A stretch of DNA of 64,000 nucleotides from Candidatus Thorarchaeota archaeon (GTDB lineage: Archaea; Asgardarchaeota; Thorarchaeia; Thorarchaeales; Thorarchaeaceae): positions 20,529 to 84,528 of the forward strand of contig JAWAQK010000002.1 in assembly GCA_038893995.1 (NCBI GenBank). Reading direction: 5' to 3'. Shown piece by piece: positions 4,636 to 33,965 of the stretch (position 1 is its first letter; every line of letters begins with the position of its first letter). The notes below the pieces were generated by a model. The model had not been told where the DNA came from, searched no databases, and saw nothing but the letters and a program-made list of their open reading frames with translations. The translations under genes and the position numbers were made by a program.

Positions 4636-6711
4636 CCTATGGCTCTAGCAGACAACAGTTTGCAGTTGCGATTTGAGGACTTCCTTCGAAGCTACAAGGA
4701 TGAACATGGCACTCCCATATACTGGGTAAGAGTCCAGAACATGCCTATAGAGGGATCTACATCACTGACAGTGGACTTTCAGGAACTGGCCAGTTTCGAT
4801 AACGAATTCGCTAGGATTGCGAGAGAAGACCCCGACTTGATGTTGCTTCACTGTAATCGAGCATTGCTTGACGTCCTATCTCGTGAGGACCCAGACTACG
4901 TGAGTTCTCTCAGAGACAAAGACCTCCTTCGTATACGTATTGTCAACTACCCCGAGTACACTCCACTTCGTGCCATCAGATCCAAACACATTGGCAAACT
5001 CATCTACATCCGCGGGATCATGATGAGGGCCAGTGAAGTGAAACCCCTGCTAAGAGAGGCCCTGTTCCAGTGCAGGGTGTGCAAGCATGAATGGCATGAA
5101 CCTCAAGAAGAGGGCCGATATACTGAACCTCTGACATGCCCTGTGTGTAATGTGAAGACTCCTGTCCGTCTGATTCCCGAGAAGTCATATTTCACAGACT
5201 GGCAGAAGGTCCGAATACAAGAAACACCCGAGGAGCTTCCCCCAGGCCAGATGCCCAGGTCGCTTGATGTCATACTCGAGGGTGACATAGTTGACACATC
5301 TAGACCTGGAGACCTGGTGAAGATCTGTGGAATCTTGAGGACGTCTCCTGATTTCTCACGTAAGGGCAGCCGTCTGGCCACATTTAATGTCTACGTCGAA
5401 GCAAATGGCATTGAGATTGGCGAGAAAGAGTACGAAGAGCTAGAGATAAGCCCTGATGACGTGAAACAGATCGAGGAACTCTCACGCGATCCGTACGTTC
5501 ACCAAAGAATCTATGCATCGATCGCGCCGTCGATACAGGGATATGAACGTGTGAAGGAATCGATTGCGTTACTTCTGTTTGGTGGAGTCGGAAAGGTGTT
5601 GCCAGACGGGACTCGATTGAGGGGACGCTCGAATATACTCATGATTGGAGACCCGGGCACAGGCAAGAGCCAGATACTCAAGTTTATTGCAGGACTGGCA
5701 TCCAGGGGTCTGTACACCTCAGGCAAAGGCACCACAGCAGCAGGTTTGACGGCGGCCGTGATCCATGATACAGAAACGGGAGCAATGACTCTTGAGGCTG
5801 GAGCACTGGTACTGGCAGACCAGGGCATAGCTTGTATTGACGAGTTTGACAAGATGGATCCAGACGATAGAACTGCAATTCACGAGGCAATGGAACAACA
5901 TACAGTGAGTATCGCAAAGGCCGGGATTGTTGCCACACTCAATGCCCGGACCTCTATTCTTGCAGCAGCAAATCCCACACTGGGACGCTACGAACCCTCT
6001 CTTTCTCTTCAAGACAATATTCGGCTTCCATTCACGATCCTATCTCGGTTCGATCTAATATGGGTCATGATTGACACTGTTGAATCCACCAAGGACAGAG
6101 AGCTGGCTCGTTTCATCCTGACAATGCACCAGAGTCAGCGGACCCCTGACCAGAAGAGTGCTCCTCCAATTCCTCCCTCCCTGCTGAAGAAATACATCCG
6201 TCATGCAAGCAGGTTGAACCCACAGCTTACACCAGAGGCCGCTGAGGTCATTGAGAACTTCTACGTTGATCTACGAAAAACAGCGGAGGGCGGTGCCGGT
6301 CCGGTGCCGATAACTGCACGTCAATTGGAGTCTCTCGTGCGTTTAGCGGAGGCTCGTGCAAGAATGGCACTGAGGACAAAAGTCACCAAAGAGGACGCAC
6401 AAGCAGTGGTCAATCTGATGGAGGCATCTCTGCGGGATGTGGCCCTCGATCGTGTGACTGGCAAGATCGATATTGACACACTTGTTTCGAAGATGAGCGC
6501 TGCACAGAGGGGATCATCTGACATAATCCTCAAGGCCATGAAGGAGCTGGAGGCAGAGGGCTCCTCGACTGTGAGTGAAGAGGCGCTAGTGCAACGTGCA
6601 GCTCAGATGGGACTCTCTGTCGAACGCGCCCAAGAGGTGATCAAGAAGTTGCTTCAGGAAGGGATTCTATTCAACCCTCGAGAGGGGAAGATCAAGCGTG
6701 CACAGGGGTGA
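4636..6711 (+). CDS. mcm: MCM replicative helicase (alternative upstream start at 4501)
   Basis: Zinc finger CRVCKHEW...CPVCN, Walker A ILMIGDPGTGKSQ, Walker B CIDEFDKMD, arginine finger SRFDL, C-terminal winged helix; about 691 aa from 4636. Confidence 0.93.
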   Translation, partial: PMALADNSLQLRFEDFLRSYKDEHGTPIYWVRVQNMPIEGSTSLTVDFQELASFDNEFARIAREDPDLMLLHCNRALLDVLSREDPDYVSSLRDKDLLRIRIVNYPEYTPLRAIRSKHIGKLIYIRGIMMRASEVKPLLREALFQCRVCKHEWHEPQEEGRYTEPLTCPVCNVKTPVRLIPEKSYFTDWQKVRIQETPEELPPGQMPRSLDVILEGDIVDTSRPGDLVKICGILRTSPDFSRKGSRLATFNVYVEANGIEIGEKEYEELEISPDDVKQIEELSRDPYVHQRIYASIAPSIQGYERVKESIALLLFGGVGKVLPDGTRLRGRSNILMIGDPGTGKSQILKFIAGLASRGLYTSGKGTTAAGLTAAVIHDTETGAMTLEAGALVLADQGIACIDEFDKMDPDDRTAIHEAMEQHTVSIAKAGIVATLNARTSILAAANPTLGRYEPSLSLQDNIRLPFTILSRFDLIWVMIDTVESTKDRELARFILTMHQSQRTPDQKSAPPIPPSLLKKYIRHASRLNPQLTPEAAEVIENFYVDLRKTAEGGAGPVPITARQLESLVRLAEARARMALRTKVTKEDAQAVVNLMEASLRDVALDRVTGKIDIDTLVSKMSAAQRGSSDIILKAMKELEAEGSSTVSEEALVQRAAQMGLSVERAQEVIKKLLQEGILFNPREGKIKRAQG

Positions 6712-6726
6712 TCCGCCAACTTCCAA

Positions 6727-8958
6727 TTGACGGGGATGGTCAAGACGCTTGTAGGAGACCTTCCACTGAACCGAAGAGTCGTTGATGTTCTCAGAAACTT
6801 AGGTATCAATGAACTCTATCCTCCGCAAGAGCTCGCGTTTCGAAGCGGTGTCTTGGAGAGGAGAAACCTGGTACTATCCGCTCCCACAAGTTCAGGCAAG
6901 ACACTGGTTGCCGAGATATGTGCAGTTCACTCGATCCTGGAGCGTGGAGGCAAGGCCCTATACCTTGTTCCATTGAAATCTCTCGCGCGTGAGAAACTGT
7001 CGGAGTTTGCAAAGTACGAGTGTCTCGGGTTCTCCACAGTGGTTTCGGTCAGCGACTATGAGTCGTCACGACCAGAACTCGCAGATGCCGACATACTCAT
7101 TCTGACTAACGAGCGTGCTGACTCACTGATCCGTCAGAGGCCTGATTGGCTGAACGATGTCTCTGTGATGATTGCAGACGAGATTCACTTGGTTGGCGAC
7201 AAGACTCGTGGTCCAACGCTAGAGATGGTCATCGCTTGCATGAAACGTCTCTGTCAGGGCCTGCAGATCATAGCGCTCAGTGCAACAATACCCAATGTTG
7301 ATCAGATAGGTCGATGGCTAGATGCAGTTGTTGTCTCCAGTAACTGGAGACCTGTACCGCTTAGGGAAGGTGTACTGCTCGACAACGAGATCCACTACAG
7401 CGATTCATCAATCAGGGTCCTGACAGATACGGGTCGAACTGGCATAGAGAGTCTAATACAGACAGTCTTGAACGATGGTGGTCAAGTCTTGGTCTTTGTT
7501 TCGAGCCGTCGATCTGCAGTTTCACTTTCGAGAAGACTAGCTCCCTTGGCTGCATCACATCTGAGCGATGACGAACGCCATCAGCTATCCCTATATTCCA
7601 GAAGAATCAGTGTCGATGCATCTTCCCCTGTCTCCTCATCGGTTCTTCGCGAGATGATCGAACGTGGTTTGGCCTTTCATCATGCAGGACTATCAGATCG
7701 TGAGAGAGCAACAGTGGAGGATTGTTTCCGAAAACGTCTGCTAAAGATCATTGTTGCTACCCCTACACTTGCAGCAGGGGTCAATCTTCCGGCCCGCTGT
7801 GTCATAGTTCGTGATTACCGCCGCTTCGAGGATGGGTTGGGTAACAGACCTATCCCTGTATTGGAGTACAAGCAAATGGCTGGTAGGGCTGGCCGTCCGC
7901 TCTACGATACTTGTGGTGAAGGTATACTGATTGCACAGACCCCTGAGGAGCTCGATTTCCTTCATGACAACTATGTACTTGCTAATGCTGAGCCAACCGT
8001 TTCAAGGCTAAGGTCCACAAGGGCCCTTCGTTTTCATCTATTGGCCGCGATAGCTGGAGGGCTATCTAGAAACCTAGAGGAGATTCATGATCTTTTGGGC
8101 TATACCCTGTACTCTGTTCAGTTTCCCAGGCCTCGAATTGAAACAAGGCTGTCCCTAGCTCTGGAGTTCCTCGAACGCAAGGGCTTTGTGAAACACGAGT
8201 CTGGACAAATACTCCCCACATCCTTTGGACTTCGAACGTCTCGTCTCTACATCGATCCGCTGACAGCTGTCCTGTTCAGAAGTCGATTGCCAGACTCAGA
8301 TGACATTCCGGTCATTGGCCTCCTACATCTACTATGTCACACTCCAGATCAACCACTTGCGTATGTTTCACAGTCCGAGATCGATGAGTACTCCAATCTT
8401 CTCGAGTCATACATCGATGACCTCATTTTGAGCCCACCCTCTGAAGGCCCTCGATACTACCGATTTCTGTGCGAGTTGAAGACTGCATGCATACTTCACG
8501 ACTGGATATCCGAGAAGTCAGAACGCGAGATTACGGATCACTATAACATAGGAATGGGTGACGTCCATCGATATGTCGAGTCCACCCAGTGGCTGCTCTA
8601 CTCTGCAGGAGAGATTGCTCGTGTGCTAGGAATCCAAAAACCAGTGAAACTCCTACAAGAGATCCGACAACGCGTGAAGTACGGCGTCAATGCCGATCTT
8701 CTCGAGCTAGTTTCATTGAGGGGGGTGGGACGTGTCAGAGGGAGAATGCTGTACCAGCATGGACTGAAACGGCTTCAAGACCTATGTATGGCACCAGTTT
8801 CTCAGATAGCACGTGTACCGACTATCGGTCAATCACTGGCTGAATCCATAAAGCAGCAGCTGAGTGGTGTTGACAACCATGTCGGTTCACCGCCCCTAGA
8901 TGATGCCACTTTCGACAGCGACTACACAGGTCAGACTGTGCTCGATGACTTCGACTAG
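6727..8958 (+). CDS. hel308: Ski2-like DNA helicase Hel308/Hjm
   Basis: 743 aa with motif I APTSSGKT, DEIH box, motif VI QMAGRAGR, and the C-terminal ratchet/HhH region typical of Hel308. Confidence 0.88.
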   Translation: MTGMVKTLVGDLPLNRRVVDVLRNLGINELYPPQELAFRSGVLERRNLVLSAPTSSGKTLVAEICAVHSILERGGKALYLVPLKSLAREKLSEFAKYECLGFSTVVSVSDYESSRPELADADILILTNERADSLIRQRPDWLNDVSVMIADEIHLVGDKTRGPTLEMVIACMKRLCQGLQIIALSATIPNVDQIGRWLDAVVVSSNWRPVPLREGVLLDNEIHYSDSSIRVLTDTGRTGIESLIQTVLNDGGQVLVFVSSRRSAVSLSRRLAPLAASHLSDDERHQLSLYSRRISVDASSPVSSSVLREMIERGLAFHHAGLSDRERATVEDCFRKRLLKIIVATPTLAAGVNLPARCVIVRDYRRFEDGLGNRPIPVLEYKQMAGRAGRPLYDTCGEGILIAQTPEELDFLHDNYVLANAEPTVSRLRSTRALRFHLLAAIAGGLSRNLEEIHDLLGYTLYSVQFPRPRIETRLSLALEFLERKGFVKHESGQILPTSFGLRTSRLYIDPLTAVLFRSRLPDSDDIPVIGLLHLLCHTPDQPLAYVSQSEIDEYSNLLESYIDDLILSPPSEGPRYYRFLCELKTACILHDWISEKSEREITDHYNIGMGDVHRYVESTQWLLYSAGEIARVLGIQKPVKLLQEIRQRVKYGVNADLLELVSLRGVGRVRGRMLYQHGLKRLQDLCMAPVSQIARVPTIGQSLAESIKQQLSGVDNHVGSPPLDDATFDSDYTGQTVLDDFD

Positions 8959-10010
8959 TCAAAGAACCAGTCGTGGAGCTTCCTTTCTACGTAGTCGGCC
9001 AGCCTATCGGTCTCCTCAATCCGACCACTGGTCTTCACATGCCCCTCATCATAGTCCGTTACATCTCTGCCTGTCAGTTCCTCGACTAGGTTCAGTGATG
9101 CCCGGGCCATGACGTCAAGGTTATACCCCCCTTCTAGAAAGAAGGCCACTCTTCCTCTTGAATGGCTCTTTGCAAGCCTGGTGATTCTACGATTCATGGC
9201 CGCTATTCCACGGAGAGATAGACCGAGGTTGGTCAGCGGATCATCGAAGTGGCAGTCAAATCCCGCCGACACCAGCACGAATTCTGGCTTGTATACCTCC
9301 CCAATGGGCTCGATCACTCTTTCGAAGAGCAACTCGTAGTCCCGGTCTCCTGCGCCAGGATGGAGTGGCAGATTCACGTTGTACCCCCTCCCCTTTCCTT
9401 CGCCAATCTCGTCAGGATATCCAGTGCCGGGAAACAGCGTTCGTCCGTCCTGATGCAGTCCCACATAGAGCACTTGCTCTGTATCGTAGAATGCATTCTG
9501 AGTGCCGTTACCGTGGTGAGCATCGTAGTCTACTATCATTACCCGCTTGGTATCGAGCTCGTCTACCAGGTATTGTGCTGCCACAGCTATGTTGTTTATG
9601 AAACAGAAGCCGAGTGCTCTGCTCCTTTCAGCATGATGCCCGGGAGGTCTGCACATCACGTAGGCATTGTTACTAGCGTCTTGTCGGATCCTTTTGACCG
9701 CTTCTATACCTCCGCTCGCTGCGAGGAGCGCCGCCTCGTACGTATACGGGTTCCCCGCTGTGTCAGGTGTGAAGTATCCCCCTCCCATCTTCGACATTCT
9801 TTCTAGGCTCTGCAGATAGTCCTTACCATGAATTCGCAGCAGCGGTCGAGTGTCTGGCAGAGTTGGAGTCAACAACCTGACTTCCCGCTCCAGTAGGCCC
9901 GCCTCTCGGATCGTTTCGAGGCTTCTCTGGACCCTCTCCGGCCGTTCAGGATGACCGTGAGATATAACATGTTTGAGAAACATCTCATGGAAGACCAAAT
10001 CAGTGACCAT
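8955..10010 (-). CDS. Histone deacetylase-family protein (HDAC/AcuC/acetylpolyamine amidohydrolase-like)
   Basis: 351 aa with the HDAC signature PPGHHA, DYDAHHGNGTQ and FLEGGYN. Confidence 0.8.
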   Translation of the reverse strand: MVTDLVFHEMFLKHVISHGHPERPERVQRSLETIREAGLLEREVRLLTPTLPDTRPLLRIHGKDYLQSLERMSKMGGGYFTPDTAGNPYTYEAALLAASGGIEAVKRIRQDASNNAYVMCRPPGHHAERSRALGFCFINNIAVAAQYLVDELDTKRVMIVDYDAHHGNGTQNAFYDTEQVLYVGLHQDGRTLFPGTGYPDEIGEGKGRGYNVNLPLHPGAGDRDYELLFERVIEPIGEVYKPEFVLVSAGFDCHFDDPLTNLGLSLRGIAAMNRRITRLAKSHSRGRVAFFLEGGYNLDVMARASLNLVEELTGRDVTDYDEGHVKTSGRIEETDRLADYVERKLHDWFFD

Positions 10011-21841: not shown

Positions 21842-21972
21842 TGGCGGGCTCGGCGGGATTTGCTCCAATACCGAGACACGCTCGGTCCGATTGAACCCGC
21901 AACCCTCAGGTGTCTCTCTCGGTTTCCCTTGAGATAAAAGCCTGCTGCGCTGCCTGGTTGCGCCACGAGCCC
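21842..21972 (-). tRNA. tRNA-Lys(TTT) with two introns: about 23 nt at 37/38 and about 31 nt in the T-loop
   Basis: Acceptor GGGCTCG/CGAGCCC with G and an encoded CCA. D-arm GCGC-AACCAGGCA-GCGC. Anticodon stem GCAGG and loop CTTTTA, then an insert with a TCTC...GAGA hairpin. T-stem GCGGG/CCCGC flanks TTCAA[about 31 nt]AT. Confidence 0.6.
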
Positions 21973-27849: not shown

Positions 27850-28326
27850 TCACACCACTGACTTCGACTGACCGACGCCTGTCTTATGACTCACGTAATC
27901 CGCGTAGGCCCTTCGTGCAAGATCATTAGCTCGCATATTCTCCTCTCTAGGTATCCATCTGATTTCGATCTCGATGCCTCTCCTGCTAAGCTCTCCAATC
28001 AGTTGCTTCAGTCTGCTGTGCAGAGGTCCAATCCTCTTGGACTTGACTGCATATTCCCCCCTGATCTGTCTTATCACCAACTGACTGTCTCCACGTATGA
28101 CCACACGGTCCCCCTCACCTACTAGAGGCGCGACCGCCTCCAGCGCGCTGATGAGACCTGAGTACTCTGCCACGTTATTTGTCATATCGGATCCTTCCCC
28201 CACAATACCACCAGCAGAGGCTATTTCCACTCCACTCTCTATCACCGTATATCCCCAGCTTGCCACTCCTCCTGGGTTGACAGGCTCACATGCCCCATCG
28301 AAACTAATGTGGAAGACCCTTGACAT
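27850..28326 (-). CDS. rnhA: Ribonuclease H (RNase HI-like, RVT_3 family); ORF-track start at 28359 is also possible
   Basis: FDGA ... NNVAEYSGLISALE ... GDSQLVIRQI ... WIPREENMRANDLA carry the DEDD catalytic residues of type-1 RNase H. Confidence 0.7.
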   Translation of the reverse strand: MSRVFHISFDGACEPVNPGGVASWGYTVIESGVEIASAGGIVGEGSDMTNNVAEYSGLISALEAVAPLVGEGDRVVIRGDSQLVIRQIRGEYAVKSKRIGPLHSRLKQLIGELSRRGIEIEIRWIPREENMRANDLARRAYADYVSHKTGVGQSKSVV

Positions 28327-28378
28327 CTGACATACCCTCTTCTGTCTACGCATTCTCACAAGTATTCGGCAAGTAGGT

Positions 28379-28688
28379 GCAGCGGCCCACTCAGCGTCGA
28401 TTGTCCTTCCCAGTCAGCTCTCTCGTCGCTCTTCTCGGGGCGGCTTCCTCTGGGGCTCCTCCGCTCTGCCTTAGGGCTGTTCCCGCCAGGGCCTGACCCG
28501 GTTCGGCAGTCTAAGCACACCTGCATCAGTTCTACAACTGATGTTGTGGCCGCGTCGGACTCCAGAGACCACCCGTCACCGTCCTTCGACGAATGCTGTC
28601 CTGGTCCGGTTTCAACCTCTGCGGTGTTACTGGCGCCACTATTGCCTTGTGGTTTAAGCCGTGGCAAACGGCCCGCCCTTCCCGCTGC
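28379..28688 (-). ncRNA. Signal recognition particle RNA (7S/SRP RNA), probable
   Basis: The minus strand has the helix-8-like segment GGUCAGGCCCUGGCGGGAACAGCC (compare the bacterial/archaeal consensus GGUCAGGUCCGGAAGGAAGCAGCC). A terminal helix pairs GCAGCGG with CCGCUGC about 310 nt apart. The region has only low-complexity ORFs. Confidence 0.5.
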
Positions 28689-28750
28689 AAATCTTTACTG
28701 GCCGGCTTCTCATAAAAGGATTCTCCTGGGTTGCATAGTTGTCCAAGTCC

Positions 28751-30553
28751 TCAGATGATGACGCCGGCATTCCTCTTGATCTGTATGATCTCTTCAAGAA
28801 CATCAAGTTCTGACTGTGACAATTCTGTACGGAATCTTTTCTTGATCGCCATGATATGTTTCTGGGGAACGTCGACATAGAGTGTCTCCCCAGGCTTAAT
28901 CTGCCTTCCCACAGTTGGTCCCCGGATTGATATGGCGACCTCCATTCCATCAGACGCTTCATCAATCGTTACTCCTCGATCCTGGATCTGCATTACGGTC
29001 CCAATCCGCTTCCCACTGGAGTTGATCAGGTCATTCTTGGCTCTGAGCAAACCATGAACTCTGACTCCCACAATCGCTGGATCCTTGTTACGAAACACGT
29101 ATTCCGGAAGGAGTTCAATCTTTGCAGGTCTGACGATGCTGTTCAACGATTCTGCCTTAGCTTGTTCTCTCTTCAACATTACCCATGCGTTGTATTCATC
29201 GAAGAGCCGATAGATCACAGTGTTCACAAAGAGCTGAACTCCGTATTCAGCCGCCAGATCTTCAATATCGGGGGCTATCTTTACGTTGAAACCGAGGACA
29301 ACCGCATTGATGGGATCTGAGTCTCCAGCTGCCCTCGCCTCCAAGATATCCCTTTTGACGATAGGTCCCACGTCTGCTATCCTCACTTGCACTTTTCTCT
29401 CCTGGAGGTACTGAGTTACGGCCTCCAAAGAACCAAGTGTATCCGCCTTCAGGACTATCCCCGAGGAATCTCTCTGTATTCTGATTGCATTGATCTCCTC
29501 TCTTATTCTTCTGCTGATCTCCTCGAGGTCATCGTCTTCGCCGATGGCATAGACTGGTGCACCAGCAACTGCTCCATGAATGTCGGGGGACACGATCTTG
29601 ACTCCTGCTGCTGCATGGACCTCATCAACGGGGGTAAATCTTTCCCTGGGATCTCGTATCTCGTCTAGTGGTTTGGGGAGCAACAGACTTCGGATCTTGG
29701 CAACAATCACATCTTCAAGCCCGCCAATAACAACAGTGTCAGTTCTCTTCAGCACACCTTCATAGATTATGGTGTCGAGTGTCATGCCGAGGCCCGGTTC
29801 CTCTCTAACCTCAAGCACTGCTCCTCGGGCGGGTCCCTCTGACATTCTTAGTCTGTCCTTCATGTACTGCTGAGTCAATCCCGAAAGAACCATCAGCAAT
29901 TCGGGGATGCCCTCTCCCGTCCGGGCACTGGTCGGTATTATCGCGACGGTCCTTGTGAAGTCCTTTACACGGTCGAATCTCTCGGAGTCAATTCCATTCG
30001 CAGAAAGTGCGCCAACGATCTCATAGATGAGTTTGTCAATCTGTCTACGAGTACCCTCATCCTGTGCGTTGATGCTCTGAACGAGAGTCATATTCGGTTT
30101 CTCTCTCCAACCGGGCACTTTGTCCAACTTGTTTGCCGCCACAACGAACGGTGTCTTCCCTGACCGTAGTATCTTCAGCGACTCGTAGGTCTGAGTCATA
30201 GGTCCATCATTAATGTCTATCACCAGTATTGCAATATCCGCAATGGCTCCCCCACGTCTCCTGAGGTTGAGATATGCCTCATGCCCTGGTGTGTCAATAA
30301 ATAGCAGGCCATCTATCAGGAGTTCCACCTTTGTCAGATCGAGCAGGTTTCCACACATTGACCTTATGGTTTCGAGGGGAAAAAATGAGGCTCCGATGTG
30401 TTGCGTCATTCCTCCCACCTCCCGCTCTTGAACAGCAGTTCCCCTCATCTTGTCTAAGAGGGAGGTCTTTCCGTGGTCGATGTGCCCAAGTACAGTGACA
30501 ATCGGCGATCTCAACTTGGCCTTTCCAGGAGTCACAGATTCAGGCATGGTCAC
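28751..30553 (-). CDS. infB: Translation initiation factor aIF5B (IF-2 homolog)
   Basis: 600 aa with GHIDHGKTS, DTPGH and NKLD motifs and the beta-barrel domains of IF2/eIF5B. Confidence 0.92.
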   Translation of the reverse strand: MTMPESVTPGKAKLRSPIVTVLGHIDHGKTSLLDKMRGTAVQEREVGGMTQHIGASFFPLETIRSMCGNLLDLTKVELLIDGLLFIDTPGHEAYLNLRRRGGAIADIAILVIDINDGPMTQTYESLKILRSGKTPFVVAANKLDKVPGWREKPNMTLVQSINAQDEGTRRQIDKLIYEIVGALSANGIDSERFDRVKDFTRTVAIIPTSARTGEGIPELLMVLSGLTQQYMKDRLRMSEGPARGAVLEVREEPGLGMTLDTIIYEGVLKRTDTVVIGGLEDVIVAKIRSLLLPKPLDEIRDPRERFTPVDEVHAAAGVKIVSPDIHGAVAGAPVYAIGEDDDLEEISRRIREEINAIRIQRDSSGIVLKADTLGSLEAVTQYLQERKVQVRIADVGPIVKRDILEARAAGDSDPINAVVLGFNVKIAPDIEDLAAEYGVQLFVNTVIYRLFDEYNAWVMLKREQAKAESLNSIVRPAKIELLPEYVFRNKDPAIVGVRVHGLLRAKNDLINSSGKRIGTVMQIQDRGVTIDEASDGMEVAISIRGPTVGRQIKPGETLYVDVPQKHIMAIKKRFRTELSQSELDVLEEIIQIKRNAGVII

Positions 30554-32355: not shown

Positions 32356-33348
32356 TCAGTAGAGTGATCTGATACTATCAACAAGATCTTCGTCTGTGAA
32401 ATTGTCTAGGACCGAGTACCTTCCCCGCTTCTTCATTATTTCGAGCGCGTGATGTATGTCATCCAGGAACGTTTCCAAGGTGATCGGAAGCTCATGCAGC
32501 CTACAGGGTAATCCTCTAGTTCGCATGACCCGTCGGATCTTGTTCAAGTCATGGATCGCATATCCTATCTCCTCAAGAAAATGTACACATATGGGTGTTG
32601 CAAAGGCCACCTGTATCCCATGCAGGCCTACTCCTCTTCTATCCATCGCGTGAGATATGGCATGTTCTGTTCCAGAGCATGGTCTCGAGCTTCCTGCAAG
32701 ACACATCGCCCTTCCCGCGTCTATCTCGGCATGTACGAGTGTTTCCAAGTCATCGTGTTCTAGCACTTTGCAGAGCGCCGATGCCATTGTTCGATAGCTG
32801 TCCTCAACGAAGGACTCCCCCACTGCCTCAGCAGCAAGTTTCCACTCAGCTAGGCTTGATGCCTTACTGATAATGTCCCCTGTCCCGGCTCGTTTCAACT
32901 CCTTGGGTGCTCTTGACATTATGTCGAGGTCCGCAATGACGGCCACCGGAAGCTTGCACTTCCTAGAGTACCGGTAACCATTCTGACTTACGGAAGCCGC
33001 TTCGCTGGCAATTCCATCATGAGACGCTGCCGTTGGCACGGATATCCAATCTAGCCCAGTTTCGGCAGCTAGCAGCTTGGCCGTGTCGATACTCCGCCCT
33101 CCCCCGAAACCAAGTATGACCGACGCAGAATCGGTTTCGATCCCACGAATCTCGTGGGATGACAGCACCCATCTGATGTCTGATGAAACTATGCTCTCTA
33201 TCTGCTTTCTGTAGATGGACAGTATAGACTCGTCGGTGACACATATTACCCGATGTCCTGCGGTGTATTGTGAGAGCTTCTCTATCGCACCCCTTGCAAC
33301 TACTACATGGTTGGGACAAACATCGTTCATGTCAAGGACCCCTATCAA
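32356..33348 (-). CDS. egsA: Glycerol-1-phosphate dehydrogenase [NAD(P)+]
   Basis: 330 aa with GFGGGRSIDTAK and DHDG-like metal-binding residues; an archaeal lipid-backbone enzyme. Confidence 0.82.
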   Translation of the reverse strand: MIGVLDMNDVCPNHVVVARGAIEKLSQYTAGHRVICVTDESILSIYRKQIESIVSSDIRWVLSSHEIRGIETDSASVILGFGGGRSIDTAKLLAAETGLDWISVPTAASHDGIASEAASVSQNGYRYSRKCKLPVAVIADLDIMSRAPKELKRAGTGDIISKASSLAEWKLAAEAVGESFVEDSYRTMASALCKVLEHDDLETLVHAEIDAGRAMCLAGSSRPCSGTEHAISHAMDRRGVGLHGIQVAFATPICVHFLEEIGYAIHDLNKIRRVMRTRGLPCRLHELPITLETFLDDIHHALEIMKKRGRYSVLDNFTDEDLVDSIRSLY

Positions 33349-33467: not shown

Positions 33468-33965
33468 ATGACGCAGTACATCAAAGTTGCCCTTATGGGC
33501 TCTGGATATGCGGGAAAGTCCACGCTGATTAAGCTATTGACTGACACGCCCGCCAGGCTCGACGGCAATTACAAACCTACAGCCGGAATGGACTGTGGGA
33601 CCATCACACTCGATGGCGGAACAAAGATAACGTTAGTTGAAATGGGTGGTCAGAGCCATTTCGAGTTCCTATGGCCAGACTTCCTGCAAGGCAGTAGTAT
33701 GGTCGTGGTCGTCACCGAGAGCACCCCCAAGGCTGTCCTGAAAACCCGTCAACTGCTTGAGAGCTACAAGGACCATCTTGCTGGGCGTCAAGTAGTTGCA
33801 ATAGCTAACAAGCAAGACCTGCCAGGCTCGATGAAACCAGAGTCTGTACAAGATCTTCTGGGTGTCCCTACCTACGGCATGGTCGCGATAGACCCCAAAC
33901 AGAGAATGCAGGGCTACAAGGTATTGATCGAAGGTCTTAGAGGTCTGGTCCAAGTGGCAGGCTAG
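33468..33965 (+). CDS. Small Ras-superfamily GTPase (Arf/Sar/Rab-like)
   Basis: 165 aa with P-loop GSGYAGKST, switch I T in DCGT, DxxG as EMGGQ, and NKQD (ANKQDL). Confidence 0.7.
   Translation: MTQYIKVALMGSGYAGKSTLIKLLTDTPARLDGNYKPTAGMDCGTITLDGGTKITLVEMGGQSHFEFLWPDFLQGSSMVVVVTESTPKAVLKTRQLLESYKDHLAGRQVVAIANKQDLPGSMKPESVQDLLGVPTYGMVAIDPKQRMQGYKVLIEGLRGLVQVAG

Follow-up and report, generated by a model that had tools for sequence, protein, structure and literature searches.

SRP RNA is a universal housekeeping RNA, and its presence in a genome is thus expected rather than surprising. In the archaeal SRP RNAs (Rfam family Archaea_SRP, RF01857), such as those of Methanocaldococcus jannaschii, Sulfolobus solfataricus and Archaeoglobus fulgidus (PMC2905702), about 310 nt are closed by helix 1, which joins the two ends, helices 2–4 are held by a covarying loop–loop contact, a long helix 5 carries a 5e motif, helix 6 has a GNAR loop, helix 8 contains an asymmetric loop and a symmetric loop with an A–C pair and an adjacent G, and helix 7 is absent. 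The 5e motif has been described as four base-pairs, two symmetric G–C pairs among them, broken by a 3-nt loop (PMC2905702), and the binding site for the M-domain of SRP54 as a symmetric loop with an invariant A–C pair and an adjacent G–G/A pair (PMC4605306). In 81 archaeal SRP RNAs surveyed, the helix-8 loop was only GGAA, GGGA or GAGA (PMC2905702), and the adenosine clamp between helix 6 and helix 8 was considered in that 2010 survey to be probably universal in Archaea and eukaryotes (PMC2905702; also PMC4605306). In bacterial SRP RNA, the URRC tetraloop is a ‘widespread alternative’ to GNRA (PMC4091067). The RNA described here shares the entire list of archaeal features. Compared with the bacterial RNAs (4.5S, RF00169; large type, RF01854), which lack helix 6 and, for the small type, also the Alu domain, it has both of these parts and shares with them a helix-8 loop of the URRC type. 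It follows the same Alu/S-domain plan as eukaryotic 7SL RNA, including helices 6 and 8 as well as a motif of the 5e type, but has the archaeal helix 1 and is without the UGUNR U-turn that binds SRP9/14. Despite the Asgard origin of the DNA, no specifically eukaryote-like features were identified in the SRP RNA, nor any sign of SRP9/14 or SRP68/72 partners.

The window, i.e. the whole stretch of 64,000 nt that was analysed, almost certainly carries at 28378–28689 on the minus strand the SRP RNA (7S RNA) gene of a Thorarchaeota-like Asgard archaeon. The gene and its immediate surroundings are as follows.

28378–28689, minus strand: SRP (7S) RNA gene, complete, 312 nt (RF01857 match, MFE fold, synteny, covariation)
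28751–30553, minus strand: aIF5B/IF-2 gene, upstream neighbour of the SRP RNA gene
27850–28359, minus strand: RNase H-like gene, downstream neighbour of the SRP RNA gene
28709–28720, minus strand: promoter-like element TCCTTTTATGAG, with the TATA-like TTTTAT at 28717–28712, about −28 to −23 from the mature 5′ end

Using Infernal in E-value mode on positions 28000–29000, the 312-nt segment was found to match RF01857 over the complete model (1–317 of 317) with 81.9 bits and E = 1.6e-18. A sequence-only reading of this DNA had proposed a probable SRP RNA on the minus strand and had suggested precisely this search; the match runs from end to end, though below the family's curated gathering score of 96.5 bits, and is obtained outside the default gathering mode. 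Its estimate of a domain of about 310 nt was right, whereas the boundaries it gave, 28379–28688, fall 1 nt short at each end. A scan of the whole window against Rfam at gathering thresholds returned two tRNAs only and no SRP RNA. Since the window RNA scores below the gathering score, a default Rfam scan is silent and the gene remains hidden from routine annotation, and gene callers consequently place meaningless ORFs over the locus. The shortfall is shared within the clade: the scores of the window RNA and 14 orthologues, all of them full-length Archaea_SRP, range from 81.3 to 111.8 bits, with nine of the 15 (the window counted) under the gathering score and six relatives at 99.6–111.8 bits. 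That relatives lie on both sides of the cutoff implies that the shortfall reflects sampling of the model's seed and not non-membership. Departures in the helix-8 loop, the symmetric loop and the UGUNR site, combined with an RF01857 seed presumably devoid of Asgard sequences, plausibly explain the sub-threshold score.

Because no Rfam family reaches its gathering score at the locus, one could also think of some other structured RNA, or of a GC-rich hairpin occurring by chance in the 3′ region of aIF5B. In the sensitive mode, however, Archaea_SRP was the sole significant family and covered the whole length, the other matches being to snoRNA models with E-values of 4–6, and both the helix-by-helix architecture and the diagnostic motifs are those of SRP RNA, so that we regard this explanation as having a negligible probability. 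When the window RNA was folded without constraints, its MFE was −131.9 kcal/mol (z = −3.45, with none of 100 shuffles equally stable), and this model-free fold has the SRP topology: a helix closes the molecule, the 5′ part forms a three-way junction, and a long helix 5 is present together with two apical hairpins. For covariation, an alignment (A1) of 29 sequences was used, comprising the window and 28 orthologues, with the end-truncated copy of L003 omitted. RNAalifold gave 70 consensus pairs on this alignment, 34 of them with compensatory double changes; its assignment of helices 2 and 4 was wrong, and an explicit SRP structure, including the loop–loop pseudoknot between helices 3 and 4, was tested in its place, with the pairing partners slid by 1–3 columns serving as controls. 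Across the 29 sequences, 84.6% of the cells were paired in the explicit structure against 38–46% in the slid controls, 45 pairs were changed on both sides against 14–20, and the covariation score was 0.27 against 0.07–0.11; none of 500 shuffles reached the observed values. Helices 1, 3, 4, 5, 6 and 8 all covary, and numerous invariant G·U pairs fix the RNA strand. Helices 1–6 and 8 are thus recovered by folding and comparative analysis, as had been anticipated for helices 2–6 and 8 when a fold was proposed as a check. The SRP RNA of the window has hence been demonstrated in sequence, structure, conservation and covariation, and its parts can be placed as follows.

28682–28689, minus strand: helix 1, 5′ strand (UGCAGCGG), pairing with 28378–28385
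28378–28385, minus strand: helix 1, 3′ strand (CCGCUGCA), pairing with 28689–28682, a perfect 8-bp helix enclosing 312 nt
28633–28677, minus strand: small (Alu) domain with helices 2, 3 and 4 (pairing and loop–loop contact)
28514–28551, minus strand: helix 6 with its apical GNAR tetraloop GUAG at 28535–28532 (alignment, covariation)
28466–28509, minus strand: helix 8, the SRP54-binding helix (Rfam alignment; helices 14–16, 86–100% paired and covarying)
28443–28449, minus strand: 5e-like motif, 3′ strand AG[GAA]GC, pairing with GUCU at 28569–28566

Helix 1 is paired in 98.3% of cells, with three pairs doubly changed (e.g. AG/CU to GA/UC). The closing helix noted by the sequence-only reading is therefore present, its length being 8 bp and not 7. 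Within the small domain, helix 3 is paired throughout (100%) and shows CG/UA covariation that divides the sequences 14 versus 14, and its loop UUGCC (28667–28663) pairs with GGCAA in the helix-4 loop (28646–28642). This contact is paired in 96.5% of cells and is compensated where it varies, as UUGGC:GUCAA in L025 and UUGCG:CGCAA in L024; its polarity differs from that of the Rfam consensus, the loops of helices 3 and 4 in the window containing GCC and GGC, respectively. The 5e-like motif of helix 5, judged against the verbal description in PMC2905702, reads G–C, U·G, 3 nt, C–G and U–A, and its four pairs, which flank a variable 3-nt bulge, are invariant in 28–29 of the 29 sequences. The GNAR loop of helix 6, the SRP19 site, is GUAG in 28 of the 29 sequences and GAAG in L020, on a stem with double changes at 10 of its 14 pairs. 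In helix 8, an asymmetric loop (GAACC/UAA) is followed by the symmetric loop formed by CAGG (28495–28492) and AACA (28481–28478) and by the apical loop UGGC (28488–28485). The symmetric loop still has its A–C pair and invariant G, the latter with an A as partner, in agreement with the description in PMC4605306. The helix-8-like, SRP54-binding segment that had been picked out from the letters alone, GGUCAGGCCCUGGCGGGAACAGCC, lies exactly here, on the minus strand at window positions 28498–28475, corresponding to RNA positions 192–215.

The window RNA departs from the archaeal consensus in three places. Its helix-8 loop is UGGC instead of GRRA, as in 26 of the 29 clade members, the remaining three (L017, L023 and L024) having GGGA; with UGGC, the fourth-position adenosine of the clamp between helices 6 and 8 is lacking. 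The 3′ side of the symmetric loop is AACA instead of AGCA, giving a G·A for a G·G pair, and at the UGUNR site between helices 3 and 4 the window has UUAAA together with a 2-nt deletion common to its subclade, while the sister subclade has UGUGA, UGUUA or UGUAA. We considered each of these as a potential novelty and rejected it as such. The pair concerned by the AACA variant has been described as G–G/A (PMC4605306). Deviations from UGUNR are documented in several archaeal orders (PMC2905702), and the motif is thus not a strict requirement. As to UGGC, the URRC type is widespread in bacteria, and a metagenome scan for helix-8 cores of this type, from which 20 loci were sampled among the matches listed, yielded at least 12 archaeal SRP RNAs of full length that score 128–179 bits and combine UGAC in the helix-8 loop with GGAG in that of helix 6 (L097, L164, L126, L106, L103, L176, L102, L155, L087, L109, L195 and L142); L155 comes from a human gut metagenome. 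These RNAs have the full architecture and a URRC-type loop in common with the window RNA, but lie above the gathering score, have UGAC where it has UGGC, and carry AGCA on the 3′ side of the symmetric loop in 11 of the 12, with AACA in L164. The remainder of the sample included bacterial small and large SRP RNAs, in which the URRC loop was confirmed in L098, L107, L117, L124, L132, L101 and L190. Thus, a GRRA loop does not strictly define RF01857, the GRRA loop and the adenosine clamp are not universal in Archaea, and the URRC loop type is not special to the Thorarchaeota clade. Whether UGGC in the helix-8 loop pairs with GCCR in the helix-3 loop was also considered, and the match was dismissed as coincidence, since L025 alters the helix-3 loop yet keeps UGGC, and L017 retains GCCG with a GGGA helix-8 loop. 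The three departures represent known variation and not a new kind of RNA.

Open reading frames do overlap the gene in the window, and it could be argued that the locus is a coding region for one or several small proteins rich in Gly, Ser and Pro (from 28356–28667 and/or 28532–28690) and that the RNA-like features are incidental.

28356–28667, minus strand: overlapping ORF of 103 aa, no Pfam match
28532–28690, minus strand: overlapping ORF of 52 aa, no Pfam match
28546–28758, plus strand: overlapping ORF of 70 aa, no Pfam match

A Pfam scan of the three ORFs gave nothing at E ≤ 0.01. The 103-aa frame is open in the window only, being interrupted by 2–9 in-frame stops in all 28 orthologues, whose segment lengths moreover vary by numbers not divisible by three. 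Of the 28 orthologues, 19 interrupt the 52-aa frame by codon 43, and a further six terminate it close to the position of the stop in the window. Substitutions follow base-pair covariation rather than codon structure. We therefore give a protein-coding explanation practically no credence. Two ORFs over the locus had already been described as free of motifs, which the scan bears out, and a protein homologue for 28356–28667 coupled with an empty Rfam SRP search had been named as the outcome that would speak against an RNA; the RF01857 match was obtained instead, along with no Pfam match and a disrupted frame in every orthologue.

The SRP RNA gene also occupies a conserved position. The adjacent aIF5B is 72–76% identical to proteins from MAGs of Thorarchaeota/Promethearchaeota (Asgard archaea), and in a local nhmmer search 29 Thorarchaeota loci were found to have this RNA immediately downstream of aIF5B. 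The gene order orf218–NDK–aIF5B–SRP RNA is kept throughout the clade up to the SRP RNA gene and is lost directly past its 3′ end: among the related loci, only L013 shares the window's RNase H-like neighbour, and no counterparts of the SIS and HEAT-repeat genes, which follow further on in the window, occur in the flanks fetched for the relatives. A T-rich, TATA-like box is found about 23–29 nt (around −26) upstream of the mature 5′ end in all 28 orthologues, reading RCAAYGTTTTTAGG in most of them. In the loci with inverted copies (L018, L022, L023 and L024) the box reads CCTTAATTCC, having moved along with the SRP RNA gene. A T-rich tract also follows the 3′ end in most orthologues; it is weak in the window, with no clear oligo-T terminator there. 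The upstream and downstream tracts presumably act as promoter and terminator, respectively.

One might still ask whether the window copy is a decaying or redundant pseudogene, the functional gene being located elsewhere in the genome. The RF01857 score of the window copy is the joint lowest of the 15 clade members scored, more of its consensus pairs are broken (7 of 76) than in any other sequence of the set, it has six private changes at near-invariant columns, and the relatives L022 and L024 do carry SRP RNA fragments beside an intact copy. Nevertheless, the gene is collinear with the model over its full length, sits in the slot that in 25 relatives holds the sole intact copy, and retains its promoter-like box, and the helix-6 GNAR loop, the A–C pair and G of the symmetric loop, the asymmetric loop, the 5e-like motif and the loop–loop contact all read as intact. 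The window keeps 69 of the 76 consensus pairs; five of the seven breaks fall in the central part of helix 5, which is variable and poorly aligned, and the other two are a tandem G·A/A·G at positions occupied by wobble pairs in relatives. Pairing is maintained by three of the six private changes (U·G to U–A, U·G to C–G and C–G to U–A), and comparable numbers of private changes occur in other divergent lineages, with six each in L025, L023 and L024 and 11 in L017. In addition, a local profile HMM search detected no second copy or fragment within the 64-kb window. That the gene is a pseudogene is accordingly very improbable; it is a genuine and ordinary SRP RNA gene, an unannotated and sub-threshold member of a well-known family.

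The wider neighbourhood consists of core information-processing genes, namely those for RNA polymerase B, A′ and A″, EF-1alpha, aIF5B, Rpb3/RpoD and the ribosomal proteins L18e, L13, S9 and S2. No SRP19 or SRP54 gene was found among the 28 window ORFs scanned (14.4–46.5 kb). Between an iron-containing alcohol dehydrogenase-like gene (32356–33348) and the RpoD/Rpb3–ribosomal protein cluster, the plus strand encodes an Arf/Ras-family small GTPase at 33468–33965 (Pfam Arf, E = 9.6e-14); eukaryote-like signature proteins such as Arf/Ras GTPases are typical of Asgard archaea. At 21845–21972 on the minus strand is a tRNA (Rfam, 38.9 bits) with insertions of 24 nt at the canonical anticodon-loop position and of 33 nt in the T-loop, to which the Rfam alignment assigns the anticodon UUU (Lys) and which ARAGORN did not report; a multi-intron tRNA of this kind fits an archaeal origin. 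Some aIF5B loci of relatives are themselves unusual. On the chromosome CP070658.1 (L066, L071), aIF5B residues 9–242 and 197–600 match at two distant places, and in CP070761.1 (L026) the match ends at residue 575, with no SRP RNA detected in the 4 kb of downstream sequence retrieved. The aIF5B match is extended to about 2.65 kb, as compared with 1.75 kb, in L053 and L076, which suggests an intein or other insertion.

Several relatives show rearrangements at the SRP RNA gene. In L020 (CAYWJO010000047.1), the last 101 nt of the gene (5866–6179) are repeated with 99% identity 2.28 kb downstream (8462–8562). The repeat is direct, the 2.28 kb of bracketed DNA are unique to L020, and just past the second repeat comes a gene that in ten relatives lies within about 150 nt downstream of the SRP RNA, i.e. 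an ‘empty-site’ pattern. This arrangement is an att-like signature, as would be expected if DNA had been inserted into the SRP RNA gene at its 3′ end. Pfam, PHROGs and PDB sequence searches of the L020 insert revealed no integrase; its 340-aa ORF encodes a secreted or anchored Ser/Thr-rich protein. In L022 (CAYHAA010000003.1), a diverged SRP RNA is split at about position 200 into two parts (5862–6061 and 9673–9788, positions 1–200 and 201–317) that are 81% and 77% identical to the intact gene and lie 3.6 kb apart; the intervening DNA contains an intact, inverted SRP RNA gene (6882–7197, minus strand) and genes for an ABC-transporter ATPase and permease. The SRP RNA gene is inverted at its usual site after aIF5B in L018 (5820–6134), L023 (5829–6142) and L024 (5829–6142), all on the minus strand and each with its own promoter-like box. 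A weak 3′ fragment on the plus strand (6229–6303, model positions 200–278) is located beside the inverted gene in L024, and L071 has a weak 60-nt 3′-end fragment (7598–7657) 2 kb downstream of its SRP RNA gene.

The direct repeat in L020, the split gene in L022 and the in-place inversions in L018, L023 and L024 suggest that the 3′ half of the Thorarchaeota SRP RNA gene, around and after the helix-8 apex, might be a recurrent site of insertion or recombination, a proposal that we put forward tentatively and hold to be rather unlikely as it stands. If so, the SRP RNA gene in Thorarchaeota would be comparable to tRNA genes as a target of integrative elements, and the break in gene order 3′ of the window SRP RNA gene could be a scar of the same process. 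The window SRP RNA itself bears no signs of insertion, these being confined to relatives.

Going by its family membership, the window RNA would be transcribed, bound by protein and active as are other SRP RNAs. It is apparently transcribed from a TATA-type promoter of its own, immediately downstream of aIF5B. The product of this presumably single-copy gene would have helix 1 joining its ends, a compact Alu domain (helices 2–4) held by the loop–loop contact, a long helix 5 with the 5e-like motif as a hinge, and an S domain made up of helix 6 (SRP19 site) and helix 8 (site of the SRP54 M-domain). By homology with described particles, the RNA may scaffold SRP54 through the loops of helix 8, and SRP19 through the apices of helices 6 and 8, with the Alu-like domain and the 5e hinge spanning the ribosome. 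The particle would then bind signal sequences on translating ribosomes and hand nascent membrane and secretory proteins over to FtsY at the membrane.

Such a gene is of low intrinsic interest, and its practical value lies in the annotation of Asgard genomes. Since nine of the 15 clade genes tested are below the RF01857 cutoff, standard pipelines will miss the gene and predict spurious Gly/Ser/Pro-rich ORFs over the locus, and it is likely that SRP RNA is unannotated in most genomes of this Thorarchaeota clade. The 29-sequence Thorarchaeota alignment could be used to extend the RF01857 seed. For the family as a whole, the GRRA loop and its clamp, once deemed probably universal in Archaea, are replaced by a URRC-type loop in this clade and in metagenomic archaeal SRP RNAs.
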